Shown here: in pieces, positions 759 to 24,670 of the stretch
Position numbering within the stretch: the stretch's first letter is position 1
Layout: each line of letters starts with the position of its first letter
IMG/VR virus record: IMGVR_UViG_2850796239_000009
DNA from: a virus
Lineage: Duplodnaviria; Heunggongvirae; Uroviricota; Caudoviricetes
Reading direction: 5' to 3' (one strand)
Length of the DNA stretch: 56,870 nucleotides
Notes under the pieces: generated by a model
Database searches by the model: none
The model's input: the letters and a program-made list of their open reading frames with translations, nothing else
What the model was told of the DNA's origin: nothing
Made by a program: the position numbers and the translations under genes

Positions 759-1045
759 TGGCGTATTTTCTGGATTTTGACGAGCGGGCACTAAAGGAAT
801 GGCGAAAGCTGGGCTCGACGGTACGTGAACAGTTGAAAAAGAAGCTGGTTGAAGTACTTGAGTCACCCCGGATTGAAGCAAACAAGCTCCGTGGTATGCC
901 TGATTGTTACAAGATTAAGCTCCGGTCTTCAGGCTATCGCCTTGTATACCAGGTTATAGACGAGAAAGTTGTCGTTTTCGTGATTTCTGTTGGGAAAAGA
1001 GAACGCTCGGAAGTATATAGCGAGGCGGTCAAACGCATTCTCTGA
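758..1045 (+). CDS. relE: RelE mRNA interferase toxin
   Basis: 95-aa ORF MAYFLDFDERALKEWRKLGSTVREQLKKKL... matches recalled RelE; translationally coupled to relB. Confidence 0.9.
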   Translation: MAYFLDFDERALKEWRKLGSTVREQLKKKLVEVLESPRIEANKLRGMPDCYKIKLRSSGYRLVYQVIDEKVVVFVISVGKRERSEVYSEAVKRIL

Positions 1046-1116
1046 ACCAAAGCATGACATCTCTGTTTCGCACCGAAGGTGACACTTCTGCTTTGCGTTG
1101 ACAGGAGAAGCAGGCT

Positions 1117-1272
1117 ATGAAGCAGCAAAAGGCGATGTTAATCGCCCTGATCGTCATCTGTTTAACCGTCATAGTGACGGCACTGGTAACGAGGAAAGAC
1201 CTCTGCGAGGTACGAATCCGAACCGGCCAGACGGAGGTCGCTGTCTTCACAGCTTACGAACCTGAGGAGTAA
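1117..1272 (+). CDS. hokD: Hok-family small membrane toxin (HokD/RelF)
   Basis: 51-aa ORF MKQQKAMLIALIVICLTVIVTALVTRKDLCEVRIRTGQTEVAVFTAYEPEE, third gene of the relBEF arrangement; below the ORF-track size cutoff. Confidence 0.8.
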   Translation: MKQQKAMLIALIVICLTVIVTALVTRKDLCEVRIRTGQTEVAVFTAYEPEE

Positions 1273-1342
1273 GAGACCCGGCGAGTGAGAAATCCCTCGC
1301 CACCTCTGATGTGGCAGGCATCCTCAACGCACCCGCACTTAA

Positions 1343-1362
1343 CCCGCTTCGGCGGGTTTTTG
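1343..1362 (+). terminator. Rho-independent terminator after relBE-hokD
   Basis: CCCGC-TTCG-GCGGG hairpin followed by a T run. Confidence 0.5.
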
Positions 1363-1489
1363 TTTTTATTTTCAACGCATTTGAAGTTCTGGATGGTGCC
1401 GGAATAGAATCAAAAATACTTAAGTAGCGCGCAGGGATAAGAGGGATGGACCCCGAACAGGGGAGTGCTATTTATCTGGAAGGATTCTG

Positions 1490-1741
1490 ATGATGAACAT
1501 CGAAGAACTGCGTAAAATTTTTTGTGAAGATGGCCTCTGTGCTGTGTGCGTTGAAAATGGAAATATTGTTAGTCATTACCGCATTGTGTGTTTGCAAAAA
1601 AATGGGGCTGCGTTAATTAATTTTGTGGATGCCCGAGTGACGGACGGATTTATCTTGCGCGACGGTGAGTTTGTCACTTCATTACAGGCATTGAAAGAGA
1701 TCGGAATAAAAGCTGGCTTTTCTGCTTTTTCAGAAGAATAA
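1490..1741 (+). CDS. rem: Rem-like small prophage protein
   Basis: 83-aa ORF MMNIEELRKIFCEDGLCAVC...; position after hokD matches Qin gene order. Confidence 0.65.
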   Translation: MMNIEELRKIFCEDGLCAVCVENGNIVSHYRIVCLQKNGAALINFVDARVTDGFILRDGEFVTSLQALKEIGIKAGFSAFSEE

Positions 1742-1807
1742 ACTCATCTACAATCTTGCGCGGGGCTGAACTCCCGCTGAGTAACACCGTGCCACTGGAG
1801 AAAACCG

Positions 1808-2086
1808 ATGGCACGCAACGCAAAATATTACAATCATGATAATTCGACCGTTCTTGCCCACACGCACGAGCGGTATTCTCATGCATTTAAGTCAGACTGG
1901 TACCAGCATCCCTCATGCACTGAAGAACAGGCCGAATGGCTCATTCAGTGTTACCGCAGGCGCGGATGCGAGGTTAAAAAAGCCCTTAGCCTCGACTACC
2001 GTCACTGGATAATCTCCGTCAGGCTCCCTTACTCCGAACAGCCACCGCGTCCGTCCCGCACATTCCAGCAACGGATCTGGAGGTAA
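1808..2086 (+). CDS. Hypothetical protein
   Basis: 92-aa ORF ending 1 nt before the ydfU start; no recognisable motif. Confidence 0.3.
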   Translation: MARNAKYYNHDNSTVLAHTHERYSHAFKSDWYQHPSCTEEQAEWLIQCYRRRGCEVKKALSLDYRHWIISVRLPYSEQPPRPSRTFQQRIWR

Positions 2087-2087
2087 C

Positions 2088-3137
2088 GTGCGGGTATTAC
2101 TTCGACCTGTTCTGGTTCCGGAACTCGGGCTGGTGGTCCTTAAGCCCGGTCGTGAATCCATGCCGGTATTCCACAATACCCGGTTACTGGTGGAGCCGGA
2201 ACCGAAAAGCATGCGTAATCTGCCGTCCGGGGTCGTTCCTGCCGCTCGCCAGCCGCTGGTGGAAGACAAAACATTGCTGCCGTTTTTCAGTAACGCACGG
2301 GTGATTCGTGCTGCTGGTGGTGCTGGTGCATTGTCTGACTGGCTGTTGCGCCATATTAAATCCTGCCAGTGGCCACACGGCGATTATCATCACAGCGAAA
2401 CCGTCATTCACCGTTATGGTACCGGCGCAATGGTGTTGTGCTGGCACTGCGACAACCAGCTGCGTGACCAGACATCCGAATCACTCGAGCAACTTGCTCA
2501 TCAAAACCTGTCAGCATGGATGATTGACGTCATCGGTCACGCAATAAGCGGTACGCAGGAGCGTGAATTATCTCTGGCTGAATTATCCTGGTGGGCGGTC
2601 CGCAATCAGGTGGCGGACGCGCTACCGGAAGCGGTATTACGTCGTTCGCTGGGGTTGCGTGCGGAAAAAATCCGCTCAATGTACCGTGAAAGCGACATCG
2701 TACCGGGAGAGCAGACCGCCACCAGCATACTGAAACAGCGCACAAAAAATCTTGCGCCGCTGCCTCACGCCCACCAGCAACAGAACCCACCACAGGAAAA
2801 GACGGTGGTCAGCATTGCCGTTGATCCTGAGTCTCCGGAATCTTTCATGAAACGACCTAAACGTCGCCGCTGGGTTAACGAGAAATACACACGCTGGGTG
2901 AAGACACAGCCGTGTGCGTGTTGTGGTAAGCCAGCCGACGATCCCCATCACCTGATTGGTCATGGTCAGGGCGGAATGGGGACAAAATCTCACGATATTT
3001 TCACGCTACCGCTGTGTCGGGAGCATCACAACGAGCTTCATGCGGATCCGCTGGCGTTCGAAGAAAAGCATGGTTCTCAGGTTGATTTAATTTTTCGTTT
3101 TCTTGATCACGCCTTTGCAACTGGCGTGCTTGGGTAA
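2088..3137 (+). CDS. ydfU: YdfU-like prophage protein (DUF968), C-terminal Cys/His cluster
   Basis: 349-aa ORF with CACCGKPADDPHHLIGHGQGGMGTKSHD...CREHHNELH near the C-terminus; length and position match Qin ydfU. Confidence 0.6.
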   Translation: MRVLLRPVLVPELGLVVLKPGRESMPVFHNTRLLVEPEPKSMRNLPSGVVPAARQPLVEDKTLLPFFSNARVIRAAGGAGALSDWLLRHIKSCQWPHGDYHHSETVIHRYGTGAMVLCWHCDNQLRDQTSESLEQLAHQNLSAWMIDVIGHAISGTQERELSLAELSWWAVRNQVADALPEAVLRRSLGLRAEKIRSMYRESDIVPGEQTATSILKQRTKNLAPLPHAHQQQNPPQEKTVVSIAVDPESPESFMKRPKRRRWVNEKYTRWVKTQPCACCGKPADDPHHLIGHGQGGMGTKSHDIFTLPLCREHHNELHADPLAFEEKHGSQVDLIFRFLDHAFATGVLG

Positions 3138-3149
3138 AAGAGGTGACTG

Positions 3150-3524
3150 ATGCTCATAGATTTGGTTTTACCTTACCCGCCGACGGTGAACACTTACTGG
3201 CGACGCCGTGGCAGCACATATTTTATCTCGGAGGAGGGAAAGCGTTATCGCCGGGCTGTGGCGCTTATTGTTCGCCAGCAGCGGCTGAAATTAAGCCTGT
3301 CCGGAAGGCTGGCGATAAAGGTGATTGCAGAGCCACCGGATAAGCGTCGTCGCGACCTGGACAATATCCTGAAAGCACCGCTGGATGCGCTGACGCATGC
3401 GGGAGTGTTAATGGACGATGAGCAGTTTGATGAAATCAATATCGTTCGTGGTCAGCCAGTATCTGGTGGACGTATGGGGGTGAAGATTTACCCCATAATG
3501 CATGAAGAGCAGGTCAAAAAATGA
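3150..3524 (+). CDS. rusA: RusA-family Holliday junction resolvase
   Basis: 124-aa ORF with PPTVNTYWRRRG...KRRRDLDNILKAPLDALTHAGVLMDDEQF, the RusA catalytic-region pattern. Confidence 0.75.
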   Translation: MLIDLVLPYPPTVNTYWRRRGSTYFISEEGKRYRRAVALIVRQQRLKLSLSGRLAIKVIAEPPDKRRRDLDNILKAPLDALTHAGVLMDDEQFDEINIVRGQPVSGGRMGVKIYPIMHEEQVKK

Positions 3525-4342
3525 AACTGGAAGATTTACCGAAATACTACTCCCCAAAATCCCCTGGCCTGACCGATGCATCGGCCTCAACGTCAAAAGA
3601 TGCGCTGAGTATCACTGATGTGATGGCCGCGCAGGGCATGACACAGAATCGGGCTGAGATGGGGTTTTCTGCGTTCCTGGGGAAAATGGGCATCAGTATG
3701 AATGACAGGGCGCGGGCAACAGAATTACTGGCAGATTATGCACTCAGTCGGTGCGATCGTGTGGCGGCGTTGAGAAAACTTCCGGCAGAAATAAAACCGG
3801 TAGTGATGCGCATTATGGCTTCGTACGCTTTTGAGGATTATGCCCGCAGCGCAGCGAGTAAAAAGCAGTGCCCTTGTTGCTATGGGGAAAAATTTATTGA
3901 AAGCGTAGTTTTTACAAACAAGGTCCAGTATCCGGATGGTAAGCCGCCGGTATGGGCAAAGTGTACGAAAGGTGTGTATCCGTCTTACTGGGAAGAATGG
4001 AAAAAAGTCAGGGAGGTGGTAAAAGTTGCCTGTCCGGAGTGTGGCGGAAAGGGTGAGGTTTCCACCGCCTGTAAGGATAGCCGTGGGCGTGGTGTCGCCA
4101 TTCACCGTGAAGAGTCGGTAAAACGTGGTATGCCTGTTATCAGAGACTGCCAGCGTTGTGGTGGTCGTGGCTATGAAAGACTACCATCAACGGAGGTATT
4201 TAATGCTATATGCGAGGTGACAAACCAGATAACACGCGCGTCATGGGAAAAAACAGTTAAGAAATTCTATGATGCGCTGGTGACCCGGTTTGATATTGAA
4301 GAAGCATGGGCTGAGCGGCAGTTAAAAAAGGTAACTAGGTAA
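3521..4342 (+). CDS. Late-gene antitermination protein Q (zinc-binding)
   Basis: 273-aa ORF with three CxxC pairs (CPCCYGEK, CPECGGKG, CQRCGGRG); directly upstream of putative pR'/tR' and the lysis cassette. Confidence 0.6.
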   Translation: MKLEDLPKYYSPKSPGLTDASASTSKDALSITDVMAAQGMTQNRAEMGFSAFLGKMGISMNDRARATELLADYALSRCDRVAALRKLPAEIKPVVMRIMASYAFEDYARSAASKKQCPCCYGEKFIESVVFTNKVQYPDGKPPVWAKCTKGVYPSYWEEWKKVREVVKVACPECGGKGEVSTACKDSRGRGVAIHREESVKRGMPVIRDCQRCGGRGYERLPSTEVFNAICEVTNQITRASWEKTVKKFYDALVTRFDIEEAWAERQLKKVTR

Positions 4343-4485: not shown

Positions 4486-4561
4486 GGCCCTTTAGCTCAG
4501 TGGTGAGAGCGAGCGACTCATAATCGCCAGGTCGCTGGTTCAAATCCAGCAAGGGCCACCA
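4486..4561 (+). tRNA. Phage-borne tRNA, anticodon CAU (Ile2/Met type, ileZ-like)
   Basis: 7-bp acceptor stem GGCCCUU/AAGGGCC, anticodon loop CUCAUAA, T-loop GGTTCAAATCC, encoded CCA. Confidence 0.8.
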
Positions 4562-4662
4562 TCACAAACCGGCATTAGCTTATCAGGAAGAGCAGACGAC
4601 ACGATAACAGGGTTGTTGGTGCGGGGGGCGGGTCCCCGATGGCGGTCCATTATCGGTATTCA

Positions 4663-4739
4663 GCGTTGTTAGCTCAGCCGGACAGAGCAATTGCCTTCTA
4701 AGCAATCGGTCACTGGTTCGAATCCAGTACAGCGCGCCA
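4663..4739 (+). tRNA. Phage-borne tRNA-Arg, anticodon UCU
   Basis: Acceptor stem GCGUUGU/ACAGCGC, D-loop AGCTCAGCCGGACAGAGC, anticodon loop CUUCUAA, T-loop GGTTCGAATCC, encoded CCA. Confidence 0.8.
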
Positions 4740-5203: not shown

Positions 5204-5650
5204 ATACATATCTGGATTATCACCTGTTACGGTAAAAAGTGATTGCTTACTGTTTTTGTGAATGGCATTGCAGCAGCCGGATAATGTCAGTGCTGGCTGA
5301 CGGTGTGCTGGTGGCGGGTGTGGTGGTTGTTGCTTTCCCGTTGCTGAAAAAGAAAACGCCAGACTGTTAGCCGGGTATCAGTTAGCGGGAGAAATTTTTA
5401 AATACTTCACAATTCAGGCGGTTGACTGTTGTCTGGTTTGCGGGGAGTTTGTTAAAAGAAACTGGCATGGTGAATCCCCCTGTGCGGAGGGGCAATCAGC
5501 GAGTAGGTATATGGGATAATCGCGGATTCAGGTGCTGGTACTGAATTCACCGGGAGGCACCCGGCACCATGCAATGGCACATAGCGCCACTCTCCAGCCC
5601 CTCTCCGGAGGGGCTGTTTATATTGATTTTGTCAGATGTGAGTAAACTCC

Positions 5651-7649: not shown

Positions 7650-8677
<1,028 letters not shown>

Positions 8678-9039
8678 ATTAATATTAAATCGGATTATTT
8701 TTAGCGCTGAATGTGAAATTTAAATAAAAAGGACTCTTCCATGAGTCAAAATCCTTGAAATCTTAAGGGTAAGATAAAAGGTCATTAGACAGAATGACAC
8801 GTTTTATTAATAAATAAAGCTATTGTTTCATTCGTGTGTTTTTCTTTACAAAAGTAATCCTTGCTATGGTTGGTTAATCATGCGTTAATGGTGTTCTGGT
8901 TTGTTACAAAATTATCTGAAGCAGTCATTGTTATAATTTTATTATTTGTACCTCTTGAGATTTCCTTGTTGGTTTTTCTCTCTGATATTTTTTTCGGACC
9001 ATTCTGCCCAAGGGCTAACTTCTTCAAAAGGTAATAATA

Positions 9040-9252
9040 ATGTCTAACAAAATGACTGGTTTAGTGAAATGGTTTAACCCTGAAAAAGGTTTTGGTTTCA
9101 TCACGCCGAAAGATGGTAGCAAAGATGTGTTTGTGCATTTCTCAGCTATTCAGAGCAACGATTTCAAAACGTTAACTGAGAATCAGGAAGTCGAATTTGG
9201 TATTGAGAACGGACCTAAAGGCCCTGCAGCTGTTCATGTAGTGGCACTTTGA
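9040..9252 (+). CDS. cspI: Cold-shock protein (CspA family, CspI-like)
   Basis: 70-aa [41 protein letters not shown]... with RNP1/RNP2 motifs. Confidence 0.85.
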
Positions 9253-9459
9253 GGTAGAAAATATTACAAACCATATTCACTTTAGATGCCCGTGTTGCCA
9301 TGGTTCTCAGTATAGAACATCATCTTTTGATGTTTCTGACAGAAATCCTTTCGGGGCAAAATGTATCTTTTGTAAATCAATGATGATTACATTTGATAAT
9401 ATTTCACAATACTTAAATGTTAGCCATCTGTCGCTAGATTTAAGAAAGTGAAAATGAAG

Positions 9460-10098: not shown

Positions 10099-10674
10099 TA
10101 TGTTTATAGTATTAGCATCAATTTCTCATCAGATGCTATTCAACAATACAAATTACCCATAAACCTCGTTTTTACGGGGTTTTGTTATATTTAAACATTA
10201 CCGAATAGATATAAATCTCGATTGTCGATGGTATTGGTTGTGTGACAATACCTAGTCTTTCCGGTATGCCTGAAGAGAATACAAACGACAGATTATGTAA
10301 GGGAAACGCGCTGAAACTTTCACTCTTTCATGCTGAGTGATTTGACGTTATATTTTTAGCCGCAAGTGAAGAGCAAACGAATGGAGCGACAAAATGCATA
10401 AAGATCAATACATTGATGCCCCTCCCAGGAGCAGGTTCGTGTAAAAACTATGCTTAATAGCACCATTTCGATGGGTTACCCGGATGTTGTAATTGCATGT
10501 ATAGAACATCAAGTATCTCTGGAAGCATTCAGGGCAATTGAGGCCGCGTTAGTAAAGCACGATAAGAATACGAAGGATTATTCCCTGTTGGTTGACTGAT
10601 CACCATAACTGCTAACCATTCTGACCATTTCACAAGTGACAGAGTCAATATCGTATTCTGTCACTGTCAGGCTA

Positions 10675-11588
10675 GGCTGTGTCCCTTAATTACGTAAGCG
10701 TTGATAAAAGAGTCGGATGCAGCCCAGTTTCACCATCGCCAGGTAATTTCTCGCCGTTTTGTCGTAACGCGTGGCGATGCGGCGATATTCTTTCAGCCGC
10801 CCAAAGCACCGTTCAACGACATTACGATTGCGGTACGCATCACGATCAAGCTGTGCACGTCCATCCGATGCCATTTTCTCATTTGACTTTCGGGGATTAC
10901 TGCCTTTATACCGTTATTTTTCAGCTCGTTGCGCAATGCGCGCCCTGAATACGCTTTATCAGCCAGTACCGCATGTCCACGGCGTTTCATGCTGCCGTTC
11001 TGACGCTGAACGCCAATCCCGTCCAGAAGTCGTTGCGCGAACTGGCTTTCATGAGCTTGTCCGGGGCTTAGCACGATATTTAACGGGAGGCCACTTCCGT
11101 CTGTTGCCAGATGGATTTTGGTGCCAAAACCGCCGCGAGAGCGACCCGGCCCATTATCTCCGTCGATATCGGGATGTTTTTTTGAGCACCGGCGGCACAT
11201 TTCAGCGCCCGGATATTACTGCCATCCAGCGCGGTGGCAGACCAGTCAATAAAGCCGTTTGCATCAAGTAGCGAAAGCAACCTGTTGAAAATAATATTAA
11301 TCACGCCTGACTTTGACCATCGGTTAAAGCGGTTATAAACAGTTTTCCATGACCCATATCGTTCGGGTAAATCGCGCCATGGTGCACCGGAACATAACAC
11401 CCAGAACATGCCATTGATGATTTTACGGTGCTCAGCCCATGGGCGTCCGGCCCGTGGTGTGGCGGGTTCAGGAGGTAACAGGGGCTTGATGATGGTCCAT
11501 GCCTCATCGGGAAGGTCGTAGCGAGCCATAGTTCAATATGTTGTGTAAACAGACAGTTACTATAGCTCAGATGATTAAGGGACACAGC
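10675..11588 (-). mobile_element. IS5-family insertion sequence (IS427-group-like), copy 1, 914 bp
   Basis: Inverted ends GGCTGTGTCCCTTAAT; orfA 11080-11529 (-); orfB split (10793-11200, 10686-10874); differs from copies 2 and 3 only at homopolymer lengths. Confidence 0.8.
11080..11529 (-). CDS. IS5-family transposase OrfA (copy 1)
   Basis: 149-aa ORF MARYDLPDEAWTIIKPLLPPEP..., near-identical to OrfA of copies 2 and 3. Confidence 0.75.
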   Translation of the reverse strand: MARYDLPDEAWTIIKPLLPPEPATPRAGRPWAEHRKIINGMFWVLCSGAPWRDLPERYGSWKTVYNRFNRWSKSGVINIIFNRLLSLLDANGFIDWSATALDGSNIRALKCAAGAQKNIPISTEIMGRVALAAVLAPKSIWQQTEVASR

Positions 11589-12160
11589 CTAATACAGTAC
11601 TGCAATTCAACTACAGCAATGCCTCGTATTTAGGTGAATTTACAATATCGTTCTATTCGGATACCAACTGCATTTCTGAAGATAAGGCATTTATGGCTCA
11701 CATATTGGTCCCTCACGCTCGCCAGTTCTGTGCGGGGAGGGAGGGAAGGTAAAGAAACCGGGATGTTCATCCATCATCACTCTGGATTGATGTATATGCT
11801 CTCTTTTCTGACGTTAGTCTCCGACGGCAGGCTTCAATGACCCAGGCTGAGAAATTCCCGGACCCTTTTTGATCAAGAGCGATGTTAATTTGTTCAATCA
11901 TTTGGTTAGGAAAGCGGATGTTGCGGGTTGTTGTTCTGCGGGTTCTGTTCTTCGTTGACATGAGGTTGTCCCGTATTCTGTGTTGCTGATTTGTATTGTC
12001 TGAAGTTTTTTTTACGTTAAGTTGATGCAGATCAATTAATACGATACCTGCGTCATAATTGATTATTTGACGTGGTTTGATGGCGTAGATGCACGTTGTG
12101 ACATGTAGATGATAATTATTATCATTTTGCGGGTCCTTTCCGGCGATCCGACAGGTTACG

Positions 12161-12172
12161 GGGCGGCGACCT
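12161..12172 (+). other. Helper cosN cohesive-end site (lambda-type GGGCGGCGACCT) with flanking cosQ and cosB
   Basis: 12-mer GGGCGGCGACCT followed by CGCGGGTTTTCGCTATTTATGAAAATTTTCCGG..., the recalled lambda genome left end, ~190 bp upstream of nu1. Confidence 0.85.
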
Positions 12173-12349
12173 CGCGGGTTTTCGCTATTTATGAAAATTT
12201 TCCGGTTTAAGGCGTTTCCGTTCTTCTTCGTCATAACTTAATGTTTTTATTTAAAATACCCTCTGAAAAGAAAGGAAACGACAGGTGCTGAAAGCGAGCT
12301 TTTTGGCCTCTGTCGTTTCCTTTCTCTGTTTTTGTCCGTGGAATGAACA

Positions 12350-12869
12350 ATGGAAGTCAATAAAAAGCAGCTGGCTGACATTTTCGGTGCGAGTATCCGT
12401 ACCATTCAGAACTGGCAGGAACAGGGAATGCCCGTTCTGCGAGGCGGTGGCAAGGGTAATGAGGTGCTTTATGACTCTGCCGCCGTTATAAAATGGTATG
12501 CCGAAAGGGATGCTGAAATTGAGAACGAAAAGCTGCGCCGGGAGGTTGAAGAACTGCGGCGGGCCAGCGAGACAGATCTCCAGCCAGGGACTATTGAGTA
12601 CGAACGCCATCGACTTACGCGTGCGCAGGCCGACGCACAGGAGCTGAAAAATGCCAGAGACTCCGCTGAAGTGGTGGAAACCGCATTCTGTACTTTCGTG
12701 CTGTAGCGGATCGCAGGTGAAATTGCCAGTATTCTCGACGGGATCCCCCTGTCGGTGCAGCGGCGTTTTCCGGAACTGGAAAACCGACATGTTGATTTCC
12801 TGAAACGGGATATCATCAAAGCCATGAACAAAGCAGCCGCGCTGGATGAACTGATACCGGGGTTGCTGA

Positions 12870-12895
<26 letters not shown>
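12350..12895 (+). pseudogene. nu1: Terminase small subunit Nu1 interrupted by an in-frame amber codon
   Basis: [34 protein letters not shown]... runs to TAG at 12704-12706, then continues in the same frame (RIAGEIASILDG...EYIEQSG) to TAA at 12893-12895. Confidence 0.85.
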
Positions 12896-14998
<2,103 letters not shown>

Positions 14999-15026
14999 AA
15001 ACGTCCACCATTCCCACCCTTCTGGG

Positions 15027-16326
15027 CTGAGGGATCCCCACAAAATTACTGCTAATAAACCAGCACCATATTTCGGTAGGTTCTGGACAGATGGTTTAGA
15101 ACTGTGCTCAGTACTGTTCGTCTTAAAATAAGTGGCGAGTGTCGAAGAACATTCTTCGCTAACGTCAGATATGAGATAACCCGCCGGGATTTAATGCTGT
15201 TAGCCTGATATTTCAGGTGTAACCCTTTATTTTCAGCGTGATAACCGAGTAACCACATTACGATAGTGCTCAACGTTGCCAGCAGACTCAGAACCAGAAT
15301 TCTTCCTGTTGAACGACTTTTGCTGGCCCGAAGACCAAATCCGAAGCGCCCGTTCTTTTCATCACGAAAGTTTTGCTCAATCTGCATTCGCCGACTGTAT
15401 AACTTGATGATTTCTCGCGCTCTGAAGTCATTTGTACTGCTGAAGATCAACCAGGCTTCTTTTGCTGATTTGCTCTGTTCTTTGTCTGTTTTGTTTAAAC
15501 CACTCTGACCTTTCGAACGTTTCTTTTTTCGCCCTTTTGCCGATTTCTTATAGGTGTAAAAATGCCCCGGATGCTTTTTTTCCTTTCTTTAACCAGCCTT
15601 CCAGCCCCCATATATTCCGGTGTTTTACATTCAGGGCTATCCGACACTTTTAACCATCTTTCAGGCGCGTTATCGAGGCAATACTGAACGTTATTTCTGA
15701 TCCGACCAATAAAATCCCAGCCCAGAGAAGTAATATGGTGAAACCATGCGCTCTGAAATCCAGCATCCGTGACAATAATAACCCTGGCATCGGGGGGCAG
15801 GGATTGAGCAAGGGAATCAAGGAAATCATGTTGTATCAATGGATTATTTTGTTTTTCAGAAGGAACAACCTTACTCAATAACGGAATGGAACGCCCGTCA
15901 CACAGAAGGCTGGCACGAAGAACATGATGCTCCTGGGAGGGATAGCCACTCCAGTCTACGGCTATTACACATAAAGATAACTGCCGTGTCAGCATTGAAG
16001 TGATATTCCTGAAAATCATTGGAATATCGCGATGGAGCGCCTCATTACCCATGAGGCGATCAATACGTTTGATCTTATTCTTAACTTGTGCATTACCCGG
16101 CAAAAAACGTCCGATACTGGTCAGCGTCAGAGATGCTCCGTTGATTAACGCCACTGTGGCATCCATCAGGGCATTTTGTCGGTACTGATGAAATGGTGCT
16201 AAGGCATCCCGGAAGAAATTCTGACATACTTTATGAACAGGCATAGCAGTGATCTCATTGAATTGTTGGCACAAATCAGTAGATCACATAATGCTATGTC
16301 TGTCTCGTTTTCTGGGGATTCCTCAG
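15027..16326 (-). mobile_element. IS10-like (IS4-family) insertion sequence, copy 1, inserted in portal gene B
   Basis: Inverted ends CTGAGGGATCCCCA / CTGAGGAATCCCCA; 9-bp target duplication CCTTCTGGG at 15018-15026 and 16327-16335. Confidence 0.8.
15052..16274 (-). pseudogene. IS10-like transposase (copy 1), frame broken at a G run
   Basis: Two ORFs (15495-16274, 15052-15450) together match the intact 407-aa copy at 34672-35895; copy 1 has CCGGGG where copy 2 has CCGGGGG. Confidence 0.7.
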
Positions 16327-17133
16327 CCTTCTGGGGCCGGACGGCATGACATCGCTGCGTGAATATGCCGGTTATCACGGCGGTGGCAGCGGATTTGGTG
16401 GGCAGTTGCGGGCGTGGAACCCACCGGGTGAAAGTGTGGATGCAGCCCTGCTGCCCAACTTTACCCGTGGCAATGCCCGCGCAGACGATCTGGTACGCAA
16501 TAACGGCTATGCCGCCAACGCCATCCAGTTGCATCAGGATCATATCGTCGGGTCTTTTTTCCGGCTCAGTCATCGCCCAAGCTGGCGCTATCTGGGCATC
16601 GGGGAGGAAGAAGCCCGTGCCTTTTCCCGCGAGGTTGAAGCGGCATGGAAAGAGTTTGCCGAGGATGACTGCTGCTGCATTGACGTTGAGCGAAAACGCA
16701 CGTTTACCATGATGATTCGGGAAGGTGTGGCCATGCACGCCTTTAACGGTGAACTGTTCGTTCAGGCCACCTGGGATACCAGTCCCTCGCGACTGTTCCG
16801 GACACAGTTCCGGATGGTCAGCCCGAAGCGCATCAGCAACCCGAACAATACCGGCGACAGCCGGAACTGCCGTGCCGGTGTGCAGATTAATGACAGCGGT
16901 GCGGCGCTGGGATATTACGTCAGCGAGGACGGCTATCCTGGCTGGATGCCGCAGAAATGGACATGGATACCCCGTGAGTTACCCGGCGGGCGCGCCTCGT
17001 TCATTCACGTTTTTGAACCCGTGGAGGACGGGCAGACCCGCGGTGCAAATGTGTTTTACAGCGTGATGGAGCAGATGAAGATGCTCGACACACTGCAGAA
17101 CACGCAGCTGCAGAGCGCCATTGTGAAGGCGAT
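16327..17133 (+). pseudogene. B: Portal protein gpB, middle fragment
   Basis: MTSLREYAGYHGGGSGFGGQLRAWNPP...LQNTQLQSAIVKA matches recalled gpB residues ~15-283; N-terminal stub [11 protein letters not shown] at 14995-15026 is cut off by IS10-like; fragment ends at the satellite junction. Confidence 0.85.
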
Positions 17134-17261
17134 TTATGTCTATCATCTCACCGTAGTTGCCCGCATCGTTCGCCAACTCCACTGAAACCCTTGCTGCGTC
17201 TGGAATGTCGTTTTCCATGCTTTTGATGACCGTTCATCACCCTTCCAGTTTTTCGCGGTTT

Positions 17262-17315
17262 TGTGTATTGCAATGTGTATTGCAAATTGGCGATCGGGAT
17301 GGGTGTGTATTGCAA
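17262..17315 (+). repeat. Three direct TGTGTATTGCAA repeats next to attL (putative integrase arm-type sites)
   Basis: TGTGTATTGCAA at 17262-17273, 17274-17285 and 17304-17315, just upstream of int; two related copies lie near attR. Confidence 0.45.
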
Positions 17316-17333
17316 ATCTCTTGAGGGCTTTTA

Positions 17334-18574
17334 ATGGCTATTGAAAACAAACTCAGTGACAAACTGTTAAAGAGTCTTGTCGGAAAACGGCAGGACAAAC
17401 AAAAAACAATAGCGGATGGGCGCGGGTTGTCTGTGCGTGTAAGCATGGTTGGGGGATCAGCTTTGTTTTTTACTATCGTCTTGGTGGCAGGGAATCCCCT
17501 CCGGTATGGCTTACACTTGGTCGCTATCCTGACATGTCTCTTGCAACGGCCAGGCGCATGCGTGATCAGTGCCGTGAATGGCTGGCTGAAAATCTGGACC
17601 CCCGCAGGCAAATAAAACTTGCTGCCGAAAAAACTATGCAACCAGTGACCGTAAGGGATGCGCTGTTTTACTGGTACGACAATCACGCCACAACAGCCAG
17701 AAAAGAGCATGAATATTTAATAAAACGATTTGAAAAGCATATCTTCCCCTATATCGGTGATATGGCTATAGAACAGTGCAAATTACACACATGGCTTACC
17801 GTCTTTGACAGGATCAAAAAAAATGCGCCTGTTATGTCTGGTGCAATTTTTCTTGATATCAAACAGGCGTTGCGTTTTTGTCGCGTCAGGCAATACATCG
17901 CGTGCGATCCCTTTGGAGATATTAACGTAAGTTATGTCGGGCGCTCATCCGGTATAAGGGATCGCGTTCTTAATATCAATGAAACCGCTGATGTATGGTC
18001 TTATGCTTACGGTAATAATTTGCTAACTCTGTCATCAATATATAACCGAAGAATAATGGTTATCTGCCTGGTGTTTGGTTGCCGACAGCAGGAGGCGAGG
18101 CTATCCACCTGGGACGAATGGGATTTAAAAAACTGGGTATGGACAGTCCCAAAAGAGCACAGCAAAAACAAGGAGGCTATAGTAAGGCCTGTTCCTGACG
18201 GAATAAAACAATGGATCGTTAATCTTTACGCAGAAACAAAAAATCGCGGTTATGTTGTCGGTTGTGCTTTGCAAAGGGCGACAATAACAGGGGCTGCAAA
18301 CAGAATATGCAGGCGTCTTGGTCATGATACTAATGGCTTGTGGTGCATACATGATTTCAGGCGCACATTTTCCACTACGCTTAATGATATGGGGGCGGAT
18401 CCTTATATTGTCGAACTTCTTTTAGGTCATAAAGTGAAAGGGGTTGCTGGTGTTTACAATAAAAGCAGGCATATAAAGAAAAAACTTGAGGTGCTTAATA
18501 TGTGGGTTAATTACCTTAATACGATAGCAGGATTTAACAACAACGTTATCGAGCTTAATAAAGAGGTGGTGTGA
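17334..18574 (+). pseudogene. int: Tyrosine integrase (P4/CP4-57 type), frame broken in a T6 run
   Basis: MAIENKLSDKLLKSLVGKRQDKQKTIADGRGLSVRVS... switches frame at TTTTTT (17466-17471) to ...YRLGGRESPPVWLTLGRYPDMSLATARRMR... with catalytic domain (HDFRRTF, LLGH). Confidence 0.8.
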
Positions 18575-18575
18575 T

Positions 18576-18833
18576 ATGGCAATTTATTCTCTTGTTGATG
18601 AAAACGATTTGCGCACAATGAAGGACATTGATCGGTTCATTCGTGAAAAAGAGTGCATAGCACTTACCACGCTGGCAAACTCAACACGCTGGAAAATGGA
18701 GCAGGCAGGTAAATTCCCGCGACGTATCAAGATCGGTGAACGTGCTGCAGGGTATCGACTTTCAGAGGTTCAGGCATGGATCCGTGGTGAGTGGCATCCT
18801 GGATGGAAACCTGGAAAAACAAAACAGCAATAA
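18576..18833 (+). CDS. AlpA-family HTH regulator / excisionase-like
   Basis: 85-aa ORF with ...ALTTLANSTRWKMEQAGKFPRRIKIGERAAGYRLSEVQAWIRG, the AlpA/Xis MerR-like HTH pattern; immediately follows int. Confidence 0.6.
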   Translation: MAIYSLVDENDLRTMKDIDRFIREKECIALTTLANSTRWKMEQAGKFPRRIKIGERAAGYRLSEVQAWIRGEWHPGWKPGKTKQQ

Positions 18834-18846
18834 CCAGTAAATAATG

Positions 18847-18869
18847 CCCCTCATCACGAGGGGTTTTTT
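18847..18869 (+). terminator. Rho-independent terminator after int-alpA
   Basis: CCCCTC-ATCAC-GAGGGG hairpin followed by TTTTTT. Confidence 0.5.
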
Positions 18870-18889
18870 GTCTATAAGGTAAAAACGCG

Positions 18890-19468
18890 ATGAATAAAAA
18901 TATTGCCGTGACGGGCAAGGGGTACGCTCGTCCAGTGAAAAAATTCTGCGATATTCGTGATCTCGTCGTTCTGCGCTTTGATAGTGTGAACGTTCGTGTG
19001 GTGTATCTGAACGGCGATCCGTGGTTTGTTGCAAAAGATGTTTGTGCTGCGCTGGAACTAACCAATTCGCGTACGGCGTTGCAGATGCTTGATGATGATG
19101 AAAAGGGAGTAAATTTAACTTACACCCCAGGAGGAAATCAGAATATGAGAATTATCTCTGAGTCAGGTTTCTACAAACTAATAGCCCGCAGCCGCAAAGC
19201 AACGACGCCTGGCACATTTGCTCATCGTTTCAGTAACTGGGTATTCAGAAATGTGATACCAGGTATCAGAAAAACGGGGACTTATGGTATCCCGTGGGGT
19301 GCATTACAGGATTTTTCCCGCCGTAAAGAGCAATATCAAATAAGTGCCAGCGAGAAGGGGAGGGAGCTACAGGCATGTAAGCGCAAAAAGCGTGAGCTGG
19401 AGGAAGAAGAAAAAACGCTGATACGTGAATATCAGCCTGAGTTTTACTTTGGTAACCGCATTCAGTGA
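18890..19468 (+). CDS. BRO-N / KilA-N domain protein (antirepressor-like)
   Basis: 192-aa ORF with N-terminal ...LNGDPWFVAKDVCAALELTNSRTALQMLDDDEKG..., the Bro-N domain pattern. Confidence 0.6.
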   Translation: MNKNIAVTGKGYARPVKKFCDIRDLVVLRFDSVNVRVVYLNGDPWFVAKDVCAALELTNSRTALQMLDDDEKGVNLTYTPGGNQNMRIISESGFYKLIARSRKATTPGTFAHRFSNWVFRNVIPGIRKTGTYGIPWGALQDFSRRKEQYQISASEKGRELQACKRKKRELEEEEKTLIREYQPEFYFGNRIQ

Positions 19469-19801
19469 CAAAACAAAGGCGACCGCAAAAGGGTCGCCAG
19501 TGGGAACAAGGGAAAACAAAAGCATCACCAACAATGCCACATTTGCGGCTGGTGGGCAATGTGATCAGTCAGATTTGGTTCGTTCCAAGGTTTGCAACGA
19601 GAGCTTTTTCCTGTGCTCTTTAAGGAATTTCTCAAGAGCAAACGAACAAGGTGCGAATCTTTCTGATTCATGTTCATGCGCTATATTTTTGCGTCGTCTC
19701 TTACGAGTTGGTGATGGTGTTTTGGTTGATTCTGTGTCGCTCATGGTGCTGTCCTGTAAAGCAATGCGCCTGCGTTCCTCAAACTATGGCGCTGATATTG
19801 G

Positions 19802-20107
19802 CTATTCATGCTCTTTGACCTTGCGTCGCTGGAGTTCTTCACGCGCGACGGTGACGAGTTGCCCGATCTCCTCGGCTGCTTTGATGCCGATTTGTTCGAC
19901 CTTAGCCAGGGCATCCAGTGACGACACAAGGGGATTTTCTCCGCTGCCTTCTGCTTGGCGGCGGGCTATTTCTCCGCGCATGGCGGTTACGATAAATCCG
20001 GCATTGCTTTCACCGTCCAGCTTAACGGATTCCATCCCTTGCATAACATCTAGTGGGACTCTGACAGTTGTCAGTTGTGATTTTGCGTTTTTGTTAGCCG
20101 TTGCCAT
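19802..20107 (-). CDS. Putative ribbon-helix-helix DNA-binding regulator
   Basis: 101-aa ORF whose N-terminus (TTVRVPLDVMQGMESVKLDGESNAGFIVTAMRGEIARRQ) has an RHH-like strand-helix-helix pattern; divergent from the downstream operon. Confidence 0.35.
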   Translation of the reverse strand: MATANKNAKSQLTTVRVPLDVMQGMESVKLDGESNAGFIVTAMRGEIARRQAEGSGENPLVSSLDALAKVEQIGIKAAEEIGQLVTVAREELQRRKVKEHE

Positions 20108-20168
20108 TTCTGAAACTCCTAATCATCGGTGTGTTTCAGTATACACAAAAAAAGAAATACAAAAAGCC

Positions 20169-20206
20169 TTGACGTGTGTTTCATGCGCTCATAACATGAA
20201 ACACAC
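20169..20206 (+). promoter_or_regulatory. Putative promoter (-35 TTGACG) overlapped by a 12-bp inverted repeat operator
   Basis: GTGTGTTTCATG-n9-CATGAAACACAC perfect inverted repeat at 20174-20206 in the divergent intergenic region. Confidence 0.35.
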
Positions 20207-20348
20207 CGAAAGGATTGTTGAAATACAAAGAGCAACGCCCCGCAGTGCTGGGAACACATACGGGGCGTCTAACCAACAACGTAAACTAGGCTGTGTCCCT
20301 TAATCATCTGAGCTATAGTAACTGTCTGTTTACACAACATATTGAACT

Positions 20349-20798
20349 ATGGCTCGCTACGACCTTCCCGATGAGGCATGGACCATCATCAAGCCCCTGT
20401 TACCTCCTGAACCCGCCACACCACGGGCCGGACGCCCATGGGCTGAGCACCGTAAAATCATCAATGGCATGTTCTGGGTGTTATGTTCCGGTGCACCATG
20501 GCGCGATTTACCCGAACGATATGGGTCATGGAAAACTGTTTATAACCGCTTTAACCGATGGTCAAAGTCAGGCGTGATTAATATTATTTTCAACAGGTTG
20601 CTTTCGCTACTTGATGCAAACGGCTTTATTGACTGGTCTGCCACCGCGCTGGATGGCAGTAATATCCGGGCGCTGAAATGTGCCGCCGGTGCTCAAAAAA
20701 ACATCCCGATATCGACGGAGATAATGGGCCGGGTCGCTCTCGCGGCGGTTTTGGCACCAAAATCCATCTGGCAACAGACGGAAGTGGCCTCCCGTTAA
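20349..20798 (+). CDS. IS5-family transposase OrfA (copy 2)
   Basis: 149-aa ORF MARYDLPDEAWTIIKPLLPP...; A7 slippery run (GCTCAAAAAAAC) near its end feeds into orfB. Confidence 0.8.
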   Translation: MARYDLPDEAWTIIKPLLPPEPATPRAGRPWAEHRKIINGMFWVLCSGAPWRDLPERYGSWKTVYNRFNRWSKSGVINIIFNRLLSLLDANGFIDWSATALDGSNIRALKCAAGAQKNIPISTEIMGRVALAAVLAPKSIWQQTEVASR

Positions 20799-21193
20799 AT
20801 ATCGTGCTAAGCCCCGGACAAGCTCATGAAAGCCAGTTCGCGCAACGACTTCTGGACGGGATTGGCGTTCAGCGTCAGAACGGCAGCATGAAACGCCGTG
20901 GACATGCGGTACTGGCTGATAAAGCGTATTCAGGGCGCGCATTGCGCAACGAGCTGAAAAATAACGGTATAAAGGCAGTAATCCCCCGAAAGTCAAATGA
21001 GAAAATGGCATCGGATGGACGTGCACAGCTTGATCGTGATGCGTACCGCAATCGTAATGTCGTTGAACGGTGCTTTGGGCGGCTGAAAGAATATCGCCGC
21101 ATCGCCACGCGTTACGACAAAACGGCGAGAAATTACCTGGCGATGGTGAAACTGGGCTGCATCCGACTCTTTTATCAACGCTTACGTAATTAA
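20678..21193 (+). CDS. IS5-family transposase OrfB (DDE domain; likely OrfAB fusion by -1 frameshift)
   Basis: 171-aa ORF overlapping orfA in the -1 frame. Confidence 0.75.
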   Translation: MCRRCSKKHPDIDGDNGPGRSRGGFGTKIHLATDGSGLPLNIVLSPGQAHESQFAQRLLDGIGVQRQNGSMKRRGHAVLADKAYSGRALRNELKNNGIKAVIPRKSNEKMASDGRAQLDRDAYRNRNVVERCFGRLKEYRRIATRYDKTARNYLAMVKLGCIRLFYQRLRN

Positions 21194-21215
21194 GGGACAC
21201 AGCCTAGGAGCCGTT

Positions 21216-21413
21216 ATGGTTGCTGTAAATCATATACCACACCTTGTACACACACAAACGGCCTTTGTGTGGCGTTTTCTGGCACTGAGTGCCGGAGAAT
21301 CTCAAATCATCCACGTAACCGCCTGGACGGAACGCGAAGCGCGTAGCCGTTGCCCGTCCGGTTGTGTTGCTGTATTCGCTGCAAAAATCCGCCAGGGAGT
21401 GAGTCATGCTTAA
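21216..21413 (+). CDS. Hypothetical small protein (satellite operon)
   Basis: 65-aa ORF starting right after the IS5-family copy. Confidence 0.25.
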   Translation: MVAVNHIPHLVHTQTAFVWRFLALSAGESQIIHVTAWTEREARSRCPSGCVAVFAAKIRQGVSHA

Positions 21414-21591
21414 AACCTTCCGTGTATTTGCCCGAGCTGTTAACCCAATAGGCCACACAATTGGTATCGCTCAGAATGTGAAGGCTGTTAATGTTCAGAC
21501 GGCTATTGCTGCGGTGAGAAGCGAATCATCAGAATATGGCTTATCACAAGTCATTATTTCAGCAGTGTATGAATTAAAAGAGGTGCATTAA
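21406..21591 (+). CDS. Hypothetical small protein (satellite operon)
   Basis: 61-aa ORF overlapping its neighbours. Confidence 0.3.
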   Translation: MLKTFRVFARAVNPIGHTIGIAQNVKAVNVQTAIAAVRSESSEYGLSQVIISAVYELKEVH

Positions 21592-21782
21592 TGCAGGAAA
21601 TTACATTACACGAAGCCGCTGAACGTGCGCACCAGACAGAAATTATTTGCCGCCTTCTTGAGGTATACCCGAACAAAATTACAGATGCTGATATATCCGC
21701 ACTGGCGAGCCTACTGGCGCGTCTTTCGGGAAGTGTCGCTAGTTTTTTGATTGAGGAAGAAAGTAAGCTGGTGGGGGATTAA
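21591..21782 (+). CDS. Hypothetical small protein (satellite operon)
   Basis: 63-aa ORF with overlapping stop/start. Confidence 0.3.
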   Translation: MQEITLHEAAERAHQTEIICRLLEVYPNKITDADISALASLLARLSGSVASFLIEEESKLVGD

Positions 21783-22004
21783 ATGAATACAGAACGGGAA
21801 GTCTTTTTTAAATTGTTAGCATGTGCAGAAAGTTCATTAACTTTAAATAATTCAGCAAAAGCAATATTAAATATGTGGCTTGATTGCATAAATGACAATG
21901 AAGATGCAAATATTGCTTATGGCCTGTTGTCACTTATTGATGAATCAGCAGAAAAACTCAATGACGCAATAAATAGTGCCCTGCTATCAAATAAGTCGAG
22001 TTAA
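21783..22004 (+). CDS. Hypothetical small protein (satellite operon)
   Basis: 73-aa ORF. Confidence 0.3.
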   Translation: MNTEREVFFKLLACAESSLTLNNSAKAILNMWLDCINDNEDANIAYGLLSLIDESAEKLNDAINSALLSNKSS

Positions 22005-22021
22005 GTCGAGGAATAAATAAT

Positions 22022-22321
22022 ATGGAAATGAAAAATTCTGGCTTTATTGCCAGCGGCCCCGCTCGACCTGAATTTATGAACGGCGATATTTACCGCGATA
22101 AATACGGCGGCACGGTAACGATTAAAGGCGTGGCAGAACGGCGCATCACTTACCGCCGTGAGGGGTATAGCTATGACTGCGTGATGCCTGTTTATCAGTT
22201 CCGGCGTGATTTTTCCCTGGTATATGCCGCACCCCGCAGTAAGCCCATCAGCAGGGAAAAAGCGTGGGGAAATATCCAGAAAATGAAAACCATGATTAAC
22301 GGATTCAGAGGTAAAAAATGA
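22022..22321 (+). CDS. Hypothetical protein (satellite operon)
   Basis: 99-aa ORF whose stop overlaps the pri-rep start. Confidence 0.3.
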   Translation: MEMKNSGFIASGPARPEFMNGDIYRDKYGGTVTIKGVAERRITYRREGYSYDCVMPVYQFRRDFSLVYAAPRSKPISREKAWGNIQKMKTMINGFRGKK

Positions 22322-24071
22322 AACTGGCACCGAACGTAAAACAGCAGTCACGCGGCATAAAACACAAAGGAACAGAAGTAATTATTTTTGCGGGTAGTGA
22401 TGCCTGGGCACACGCGAAACAATGGCAGGAACATGATGCGCGTATGGCCGGAGATAATGAGCCTCCTGTGTGGCTTGGGGAGCAGCAGCTATCCGAACTG
22501 GATAATCTGCAAATTGTGCCGGAAGGCCGAAAATCAGCACGCATATACAGGGCCGGATATCTTGCGCCTGTAATGATAAAGGCGATTGGTCAGAAGCTGG
22601 CGGCAGCAGGCGTACAGGATGCAAATTTTTATCCTGAGGGTATGCACGGCCAGGAGGTGCAGAACTGGCGCGAATATCTGGCCCGTGAACGCCAGAATCT
22701 TTCTGATGGTCTGGTCATTGAGCTTCCGGTAAAGCAAAAGGCGCAACTTTCGCAGATGGCGGACAGTGAGCGCGCGCAGTTGCTTGCCGATCGCTTTGAT
22801 GGCGTTTGCGTACATCCTGAAAGTGAAATCGTTCACGTATGGCGCGGCGGGGTATGGTGTCCGGTCAGCACAATGGAACTTAGCCGCGAAATGGTGGCGA
22901 TCTATTCAGAGCACAGGGCCACTTTCAGCAAGCGCGTAATCAATAACGCCGTGGAAGCGTTAAAAGTTATTGCCGAACCAATGGGCGAGCCGTCTGGCGA
23001 TTTGCTGCCGTTCGCCAATGGTGCGCTTGACCTGAAAACGGGGGAATTTTCCCCGCACACGCCGGAGAACTGGATCACCACGCACAACGGCATTGAGTAC
23101 ACGCCACCAGCACCAGGGGAGAACATCCGCGATAACGCGCCAAACTTTCATAAATGGCTTGAGCACGCAGCCGGAAAAGACCCGCGCAAGATGATGCGTA
23201 TATGTGCCGCGCTGTACATGATTATGGCGAACCGGTACGACTGGCAGATGTTTATTGAGGCCACCGGAGACGGCGGGAGCGGTAAAAGTACATTCACACA
23301 CATAGCCAGCCTTCTGGCAGGGAAACAGAACACGGTAAGCGCTGAAATGACATCGCTTGATGATGCTGGTGGACGTGCGCAGGTTGTCGGGAGTCGTCTT
23401 ATCGTCCTGGCTGACCAGCCGAAATATACAGGCGAAGGAACGGGCATCAAGAAAATCACAGGCGGCGACCCGTGGAAATTAACCCGAAATATGAAAAGCG
23501 TTTCACGGCGGTAATCAGGGCGGTGGTGCTGGCGACCAACAACAACCCGATGATATTCACCGAACGGGCCGGAGGTGTGGCACGTCGTCGCGTGATTTTC
23601 CGTTTCGACAATATCGTCAGTGAGGCCGAAAAAGACAGGGAGCTACCGGAAAAGATTGCGGCTGAAATCCCCGTTATTATCCGCCGATTGCTGGCGAACT
23701 TTACCGACCCTGAGAAGGCACGGGCTTTACTACTGGAACAGCGTGACGGTGATGAAGCACTGGCAATAAAGCAACAGACGGATCCGGTTATTGAGTTTTG
23801 CCAGTTCCTGAATTTTCTGGAGGAAGCGCGCGGCCTGATGATGGGTGGCGGTGGTGATTCAGTGAAGTACACGACCAGGAACAGCCTTTACCGCGTCTAT
23901 CTGGCGTTTATGGCATACGCGGGCAGGAGCAAACCGCTAAACGTGGCTGAGTTCAGCAAGGCCATGAAGCCAGCGGCGAAAGTTTACGGGCATGAATATA
24001 TTACGCGAAAAGTTAAGGGAGTAACGCAGACCAACGCAATTACAACAGACGATTGCGACGCGTTTTTATAA
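22318..24071 (+). pseudogene. Primase-helicase (pri-rep, D5/P4-alpha-like), frame broken near 23470
   Basis: Walker A GDGGSGKST; ...KITGGDP switches frame to VEINPKYEKRF...NNNP (helicase-like C-terminus); two ORFs 22318-23514 and 23472-24071. Confidence 0.7.
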
Positions 24072-24087
24072 TTTTTTGTAAAAGCCA

Positions 24088-24325
24088 TCTACCCCATCTA
24101 CCTGAACGAAATAAACGCATATTATTCAACATGATAAGTGGGTATAGGGCTAGGTAGAAGGCTAATAAAAGCTCTCTACCTCTTCTACCTGATTTTATCA
24201 GTTTCAGGTAGCAGGGTAGACGGCAGGTAGAGGAGTCAAAAAAGCTATCTACCCGCTGAAAGCGGCGCCATTACTGACATGATGAGCATTCGGGTAGATG
24301 GGTAGAGGGGGGAGGCACAACTAAA
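24088..24325 (+). repeat. Iteron cluster / putative satellite replication origin
   Basis: At least ten TCTACC/GGTAGA-type repeats in both orientations with AT-rich spacers, directly downstream of pri-rep. Confidence 0.5.
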
Positions 24326-24355
24326 AACTTTTTAAACGAGGGGGGGTGAAAATAA

Positions 24356-24670
24356 ATGCGCATACATAAAAATCACTTAACAAACATGCCAGCCGAAAAC
24401 ATGAATCAGGGGCGACAAATGACCAAAATTCGCAGAGACAGAACACAGGCAAAATATAAAGCGTTAGACATGACAGAGCTTTCCTTAAAGGTGGCAATCA
24501 AAGCGATAGACCACCACACACGGGCAGGATACGCGAAGGAACATCCCGACCTGATAAGCGCATTCATGACCACAGCAGCGGCAAACTTTGCCACGCTGAC
24601 AGAACGGGAGATTGCCGAAGCGGAACAGGTGACAACCATCAATGTTAAAACCGGAGAGCAGACAGCATGA
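24356..24670 (+). CDS. Hypothetical protein
   Basis: 104-aa ORF; no recognisable motif. Confidence 0.3.
   Translation: MRIHKNHLTNMPAENMNQGRQMTKIRRDRTQAKYKALDMTELSLKVAIKAIDHHTRAGYAKEHPDLISAFMTTAAANFATLTEREIAEAEQVTTINVKTGEQTA

Follow-up and report, generated by a model that had tools for sequence, protein, structure and literature searches.

The small-terminase gene (Nu1) of a lambdoid prophage carries a single in-frame amber codon, which most probably arose as a spontaneous C-to-A substitution that pseudogenised the gene in the course of neutral decay of the resident element; a probability of about 85% is given to this reading. The window, i.e. the whole stretch of DNA analysed here (56,870 nucleotides; IMG/VR record IMGVR_UViG_2850796239_000009, with the 5.16-Mb chromosome CP026875.1 as its source), contains a Qin-type cryptic prophage remnant that adjoins ydfJ and is grounded. 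A second amber codon interrupts the lysozyme gene of the same element. An earlier note on this DNA had named three possible origins of the pair: coincidence in a decaying prophage, passage through an amber-suppressing host, and a laboratory-derived or engineered source. The first of them is supported by the IS-riddled state of the remnant, by relatives with TCG and TGG at the two sites, and by TAG being the commonest nonsense outcome. The features at and around Nu1 are as follows.

12350-12895, plus strand: pseudogene of Nu1 (small terminase, TerS) with a single premature stop in its 181 codons, from translation and a match to PF07471 (Phage_Nu1).
12704-12706, plus strand: amber TAG at Nu1 codon 119, formerly TCG (Ser), through C-to-A at 12705, from alignments and outgroups.
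12350-12706, plus strand: truncated Nu1 product of 118 aa, from the ORF list; the exact product occurs in at least six contigs.
12870-14795, plus strand: gpA (large terminase, TerL), an intact ORF of 641 codons that overlaps the 3' end of Nu1 and is free of stops and indels.
12161-12349, plus strand: cos of the prophage (cosN and cosB; helper cos in the following), upstream of Nu1, from alignment to lambda.

Translation confirms the frame as the earlier note had described it, with a single internal stop at 12704-12706 and the terminal TAA at 12893-12895. The note was also right that the residues flanking the TAG match lambda Nu1 and that the original codon was likely TCG. All 546 bases align with nu1 of lambda J02459 (98.4% nucleotide identity, 9 substitutions), and nu1 of phage PhiR63_1 and of E. 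coli LH09-a are 99.3% identical to the window copy (4 substitutions). Codon 119 is TCG (Ser119) in these three references, and six outgroups show C at the position equivalent to 12705. Homology over the whole protein, a position directly 3' of cosN and cosB, and the start of A at 12870, inside Nu1, are all features of the Nu1/TerS family, and PF07471 is recorded on the 118-aa product. The C-terminal TerL-binding region is absent, residues 119-181 being gone, and the gene is thus a pseudogene member of the family. The cos region starts at window 12161, corresponding to lambda base 1, with a 37-nt exact match to the lambda left end. The uninterrupted gpA frame differs from the references by 31-40 synonymous and 3-6 non-synonymous codon changes. 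An antisense ORF overlapping Nu1 (12251-12790, 179 aa) was set aside, since its conservation is explained by the Nu1 frame.

Published domain mapping assigns DNA binding to Nu1 residues 1-68, a soluble dimer to residues 1-98, and TerL binding to residues 100-181, mainly the last ~40 (PMC6739421, PMC9026076). By this mapping, Nu1(1-118) would retain the N-terminal winged-HTH domain and linker and lose the C-terminal 63 residues with the region that binds TerL (gpA). Such a product should still bind cosB and be unable to recruit gpA, so that no terminase holoenzyme would form on the helper cos. The gene corresponds to that of lambda gpNu1, with the same cos-Nu1-A layout, in which the start of A overlaps the 3' end of Nu1. 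E. coli K-12 harbors cryptic-prophage homologues of this protein, NohA (Qin) and NohD (DLP12), and annotations of E. coli genomes call the Nu1 homologues nohA or nohD. From gpNu1, NohA and NohD alike, the window copy differs by the C-terminal truncation at codon 119.

The A at 12705 is genuine, a point that the earlier note had wished to see verified. A sequencing error was rejected because the identical allele recurs in at least six independent assemblies, short-read ones among them. Carriers include the Logan assemblies SRR4787083, DRR015921 and SRR3793777 as well as the NCBI drafts GCA_014021235.1 and GCA_012668945.1; their DNA is 100% identical to the window across 2.9-3.4 kb (3.4 kb in the two drafts). 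Gene calls of the exact 118-aa product come from the Logan assemblies, whose three SRA accessions are unrelated. Several carriers of the allele have neither the IS in gene B nor the IS in the satellite described below, so these are distinct strains and the amber is older than those insertions. Both TAGs together were observed only in CP026875.1, the other carriers supporting each allele singly. Neither of the TAG-containing 61-mers (Nu1, lysozyme) has an exact match among 5,426 complete E. coli genomes, and the Nu1-TAG 42-mer has none in GTDB species representatives or JGI metagenome contigs. One related draft (L030) has no Nu1 protein product on record; the NCBI pipeline evidently leaves the amber gene without a product in such drafts. 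Three sister-strain Logan contigs all start at window 12165, 4 bases into the helper cos. These starts likely reflect a ~60-nt cos repeat common to helper and satellite that breaks the assembly graph, and no real DNA end.

The element as a whole shows the organization of a Qin-type prophage. Its right end is formed by pin-ydfK-ydfJ (98.8% identity to E. coli), and its left end by IS3-relBE-hokD-rem-DUF968-rusA-Q, followed by two tRNAs and a lysis cassette (holin, truncated ydfR, rrrQ-type lysozyme, Rz). After this come cspI-ynfN-gnsB and, beyond the gnsB region, cos-Nu1-A-W-B...J-lom-stf-tfa. The place beside ydfJ/ydfK, pin-tfa-stf at one end and relBE-hokD-rem-ydfU(DUF968)-Q at the other are those of a Qin-type element. 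The layout matches that of the Qin cryptic prophage of K-12, with the same ydfJ/ydfK/pin/tfa surroundings, except that it includes a complete lambda-like module for head and tail. Helper genes for integration, immunity and replication are lost: int, cI, O and P are absent from the DNA covered, which comprises the window plus 2.2 kb on its left side. In that leftward DNA (positions 1-2183 of locus L011), an IS3-family element abuts relB, followed by non-phage genes. The left arm (window 1-1272) holds the relBE-hokD toxin-antitoxin cluster next to this IS3-family element. Downstream of Q lie a tRNA(CAU), annotated as tRNA-Ile in a relative, and a tRNA-Arg(UCU). Rfam matches at gathering score comprise the STnc100 sRNA, a cspA thermoregulator upstream of cspI, and IS009 RNA in the tail-fibre assembly gene.

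4486-4739, 5436-5625, 8883-9298 and 53332-53530, strand not given: RNA features (tRNAs and Rfam matches).

The relatives that have this lysis cassette include CP049278, i.e. Shigella boydii 600690 of clade 1b. Because this relative is S. boydii and ISSfl7-like IS are present, the host presumably belongs to a Shigella boydii-type lineage.

These surroundings bear directly on a laboratory origin. Lambda vectors and genetic stocks often carry ambers, and the classical laboratory alleles Sam7, Aam and Bam are likewise single-base TAG mutations in late genes. A laboratory derivative would be expected to show a backbone near 100% identical to lambda, the S/R/Rz genes, and attB(gal-bio) or a vector context, none of which was found. 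The Nu1 gene differs from that of lambda at 9 bases, head and tail genes share 88-99% identity with lambda in a mosaic backbone, the lysis cassette is not lambda's, and the insertion lies at ydfJ among Shigella-type IS elements. The allele, furthermore, is carried by independent natural isolates, unlike the laboratory ambers, from which backbone, lysis genes and integration site also differ. The proposal that part of the region was engineered or laboratory-derived thus finds no backing, and this reading, like that of a sequencing or assembly error at 12705 (the allele being present in at least six independent assemblies), is effectively refuted.

The second amber, a single-base change in the endolysin gene that had been reported together with the first, is real as well.

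7650-8183, plus strand: lysozyme (rrrQ-type endolysin) pseudogene with TGG-to-TAG at codon 49 (7794-7796), from translation and alignments.

The TAG sits in the conserved motif GSGIWTICRG, and ten outgroups have G at the position equivalent to 7795. The intact protein has 177 aa, belongs to the Phage_lysozyme family (PF00959), is annotated rrrQ in E. coli, and is not lambda R. The draft GCA_003572355.1 carries a lysozyme gene 100% identical to that of the window, TAG included. Other genomes have inactivated the gene on their own: a CAG-to-TAG change at codon 29 (L016) and a frameshift (L013) were found in unrelated genomes, and five S. boydii-type relatives (L019, L020, L023, L025 and L026) share a 1-bp deletion at the equivalent of window 8152. 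A 121-aa lysozyme product present in ~190 collection blocks was considered as a widespread truncation and rejected, since the loci have an intact TGG and the gene caller used an internal ATG. In seven loci (L007-L010, L012, L014 and L015; near position 10001 of each), the intact 177-aa protein is called as 121 aa with the N-terminal hydrophobic segment omitted, a start-site artefact that could pass for truncation.

The polarity and relative age of the two changes are given by two relatives with the same prophage, L019 (CP026845.1) and L023 (GCA_031665755.1). Their Nu1 differs from the window at 12705 only, and their lysozyme gene at 7795 only, besides its own 1-bp deletion at 8152. Both carry the relBE-to-rusA left-arm segment beside an IS3-family element, with the part equivalent to window 1-3347 inverted, which indicates IS-mediated rearrangement in the clade, and both are free of the IS5-family copy at 10672. 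As these relatives share the left arm and have TCG and TGG, the prophage was probably already a grounded remnant when the ambers arose; grounding probably also preceded the 10672 IS copy and the gnsB deletion. Decay of the sister branch took a separate course: an IS3-family element inserted after Rz, the lysozyme gene was frameshifted, and in L019 gene A was shortened to 421 aa.

A polarised comparison of 10,427 positions (10.4 kb) between the window and L019/L023, with outgroups for polarity, assigns 7 derived substitutions to the window branch. Four of the seven lie in genes, and two of these four are the ambers. TGG-to-TAG is a G:C-to-A:T transition and TCG-to-TAG a G:C-to-T:A transversion; three of the five other window-derived substitutions are also G:C-to-A:T. 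For the other ~35 kb (head and tail), exact look-ups with the L and C proteins, which are too widespread, recovered no comparator of at least 99% identity.

The earlier note had called a pair of ambers striking. To gauge this, every single-base change in the surveyed genes was enumerated, with transition bias and GC-to-AT bias varied. Stops account for 3.3-4.1% of single-base substitutions, and TAG for 46-58% of stops, so that two nonsense events out of two would both be TAG with a probability of about 0.2-0.34. Both stops are amber because about half of the single-base routes to a stop in these genes give TAG; two TAGs out of two lie within chance and reflect the mutational target, and 'striking' was an overstatement.

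The same numbers weigh on the idea of conditional-lethal ambers kept in, or inherited from, an amber-suppressing host. Both premature stops are indeed TAG, as this idea would have it, but TAG is the expected majority outcome anyway. No tRNA with a CUA anticodon is present in the window, which encodes only the CAU and UCU tRNAs, and a relaxed Rfam search yields no third. A suppressor-adapted or recoded phage would combine many in-frame TAGs with avoidance of TAG as terminator; here, only two premature stops, both TAG, were found in the 32 gene segments surveyed (22.6 kb). Natural terminators of the surveyed genes are TAA in 15 cases, TGA in 13 and TAG in 1, which is taken to be ordinary stop usage for E. 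coli-type genes. Passage through a suppressor host therefore has no support in the window, with no CUA tRNA and only two in-frame TAGs, and is considered highly improbable.

A separate question is whether nonsense as such is in excess. Two of four coding substitutions on the window branch are nonsense against ~4% expected, a nominal binomial P of 0.007-0.035 (0.007-0.011 for n=4, 0.02-0.035 for n=7), although the 10.4-kb region was effectively chosen since it contains both stops, i.e. it is subject to ascertainment. With ambiguous sites counted, P becomes 0.07-0.11, and by our own estimate ~0.15 with both branches pooled. The earlier note had made its reading depend on whether TAG stops exceed their background rate: the two-out-of-two amber pattern fits chance, whereas the nonsense excess on the branch remains weakly suggestive, a weak caveat in favour of selection.

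Selection would have acted if endolysin and terminase expression from a grounded prophage that still contains Q were harmful to the host, the terminase cutting the chromosomal cos in situ; both nonsense mutations would then have disarmed the element adaptively. This is consistent with two of the four branch-derived coding substitutions being nonsense, with the open reading frames of the Q antiterminator, holin and gpA, and with the independent inactivation of lysozyme in the sister branch and in other genomes. Both ambers fall in late functions that may harm the host (lysis, cos cutting), a placement that fits selection as well as drift. On the other side, the numbers are tiny, the stops themselves determined which region was compared, P increases to the values just given once ambiguous sites or both branches are counted, and the holin, the lethal component of lysis, is untouched. 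Adaptive disarming is accordingly judged unlikely.

Neutral decay, the preferred reading, fits the larger lesions of the prophage. A lesion census against lambda, PhiR63_1 and LH09-a yielded as clear large lesions three IS5-family, two IS4-family and one IS66 insertion, and one 11.8-kb element that splits gene B. The insertions are:

10672-11591, minus strand: ISSfl7-like IS5-family copy between a ybcW-like gene and cos, shared with sister assemblies and absent from the TCG/TGG relatives.
15027-16326, minus strand: IS4-family element in portal gene B, near codon 10, flanked by a 9-bp target duplication; sisters L004, L005 and L030 do not have it.
20286-21208: IS5-family copy in the satellite, ISSfl7-like.
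32493-36554, no strand assigned: 4.06-kb insertion at the FI start codon, IS66-family, holding a second IS4-family copy (34620-35920).
49839-50761, plus strand: third ISSfl7-like IS5-family copy, in the side-tail-fibre gene (stf).

The IS5-type element has 921 bp and is rare, occurring in 45 of 5,426 complete E. coli genomes, but a few that possess large plasmids have it in abundance, with 36 places in strain FDAARGOS_943. The IS4-family element (1.3 kb) is present in two copies with 9-bp target duplications, one of them nested in the IS66-family element.

Small lesions are to be read with more reserve. About ten 1-bp indels (at 9989, 10423, 17455, 23469, 25372, 25595, 41650, 43589, 43791 and 46195) disrupt the reading frames of gnsB and ybcW, of three satellite genes (int, primase and capsid) and of H, K and J among the tail genes; nearly all of them lie in homopolymers. 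The int and ybcW indels are missing from short-read sister contigs, the truncated H and J products occur in this assembly only, and the gnsB deletion is the sole 1-bp indel confirmed by another independent assembly. The homopolymer frameshifts are thus probably, at least in part, errors of long-read assembly, and their use as proof of heavy decay was withdrawn; given this uncertainty, decay in the sister strains may be less advanced than the present assembly would imply. A CGA-to-TGA change at the penultimate H codon (42464-42466) was rejected as a lesion as well: it costs one residue, the 852-aa H is also found in another locus (L047), and the change is regarded as a polymorphism.

Taken together, the course of decay may have been the following. 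The prophage would have been grounded before the mutation, its left arm ending at relBE against the IS3-family element. With late genes no longer under selection, one sublineage would have gained the Nu1 amber, the lysozyme G-to-A amber, the IS5 beside cos and the gnsB deletion, and this strain would later have gained further IS copies.

The element that splits B is itself a mobile element with a packaging module of its own.

17139-28938, plus strand: helper-embedded satellite (PICI-like), inserted in and co-oriented with portal gene B, from gene content and the equivalent in LH09-a.
27150-27186, plus strand: satellite cos, with cosN identical to that of the helper and a divergent cosB downstream.
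27295-27837, plus strand: intact satellite Nu1-family TerS, 180 aa, matching PF07471.

The satellite (11.8 kb) encodes an integrase, AlpA, Bro-N, primase, SSB, a gpE-like and a gpD-like protein, and a second AlpA-like regulator, with int and alpA on the plus strand at the left end. Where B is split, at lambda 3658-3670, its two flanks overlap by 13 bp, of which 8 bp, AAGGCGAT, form an identical core. Helper-embedded satellites are a described class, with 491 elements mapped to 14 late-gene sites including B (bioRxiv 10.1101/2022.07.18.500453). The elements described by Tommasini, Mageeney and Williams show the same zones, i.e. integrase and AlpA, Bro-N, primase/SSB, and a late zone with capsid, decoration and terminase genes (bioRxiv 10.1101/2022.07.18.500453). 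The present copy shares with this class the late-gene site in B, the co-orientation and the int/alpA pair at the left, and differs by an IS5-family copy that has inserted into it and by 1-bp indels in three genes (int, primase and capsid), the latter maybe assembly artefacts. E. coli LH09-a harbors a 99.8% identical, apparently intact copy in the same arrangement at the same site; only 7 substitutions but 4 homopolymer indels separate the two. In related prophages at two further loci (L045 and L049; about positions 11724-21250 of each), a similar satellite (int, AlpA, primase, SSB, gpE-like, gpD-like) lies in the major capsid gene E, not in B, an example of the other late-gene sites known from this class.

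The satellite TerS is 38% identical to Nu1 across the whole of Nu1 (E 8e-37), including the C-terminal region, and has 100% identity to a gene of LH09-a whose annotation reads 'terminase small subunit'. The Ser lost in the helper Nu1 is conserved in it, and the satellite cos lies 145 bp upstream of its gene. Rpp proteins of PICIs (RppA/B/C) steer the helper TerS to the PICI cos, have 135-154 aa, are devoid of the TerL-binding C-terminus, and depend on full-length helper TerS (PMC6739421, PMC9026076). As in the PICI Rpp systems, a satellite winged-HTH protein is encoded just downstream of a cos with helper-like cosN and differing cosB (PMC6739421, PMC9026076). The Rpp proteins are shorter, whereas the satellite protein has 180 aa and aligns to the last Nu1 residues. 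By its sequence, this protein resembles a complete TerS more than an Rpp, and the alignment suggests that it may recruit helper gpA directly.

A satellite with its own small terminase invites the thought of a packaging hand-over, in which loss of the helper Nu1 leaves the satellite TerS as the sole small terminase and gpA acts only on the satellite cos. The intact, full-length Nu1 homologue, the separate cos with identical cosN and divergent cosB, and the intact gpA agree with it. Against these stand the absence from the window of helper early genes for induction and replication, the dead lysozyme, and indels of the satellite integrase, primase and capsid genes and of the tail genes H, K and J in this assembly. 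LH09-a, moreover, has the satellite alongside an intact helper Nu1, so the satellite does not need the loss of the helper gene. A hand-over is very unlikely on balance. A broader variant of the selection argument holds that the ambers disarmed a grounded helper that has Q, holin, gpA, and a satellite with its own cos and complete TerS; they would have stopped in-situ cos cutting and lysis and could have left gpA to the satellite TerS only. This is a shade less likely than adaptive disarming in its simple form.

The Nu1 amber is therefore best seen as a product of neutral decay, and it resembles the nonsense- and IS-mediated pseudogenisation of Shigella prophages in general, with multiple IS families in phage genes, a truncated arm, independent lesions in sister lineages, and S. 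boydii as the nearest named relative. Nothing material sets it apart from this typical pattern. The finding in itself matters little: it adds one more nonsense pseudogene, of an already known kind, to a decaying Shigella prophage. An amber pair does not mark a laboratory ancestor or a suppressing host, because in enterobacterial genes of balanced GC content a single base change that creates a stop most often creates TAG. Apparent frameshifts in long-read assemblies should be verified with short reads before the word 'decayed' is applied to a prophage. More interesting than the amber is the neighbouring satellite with its full-length Nu1-type TerS, a member of a class that has already been described.
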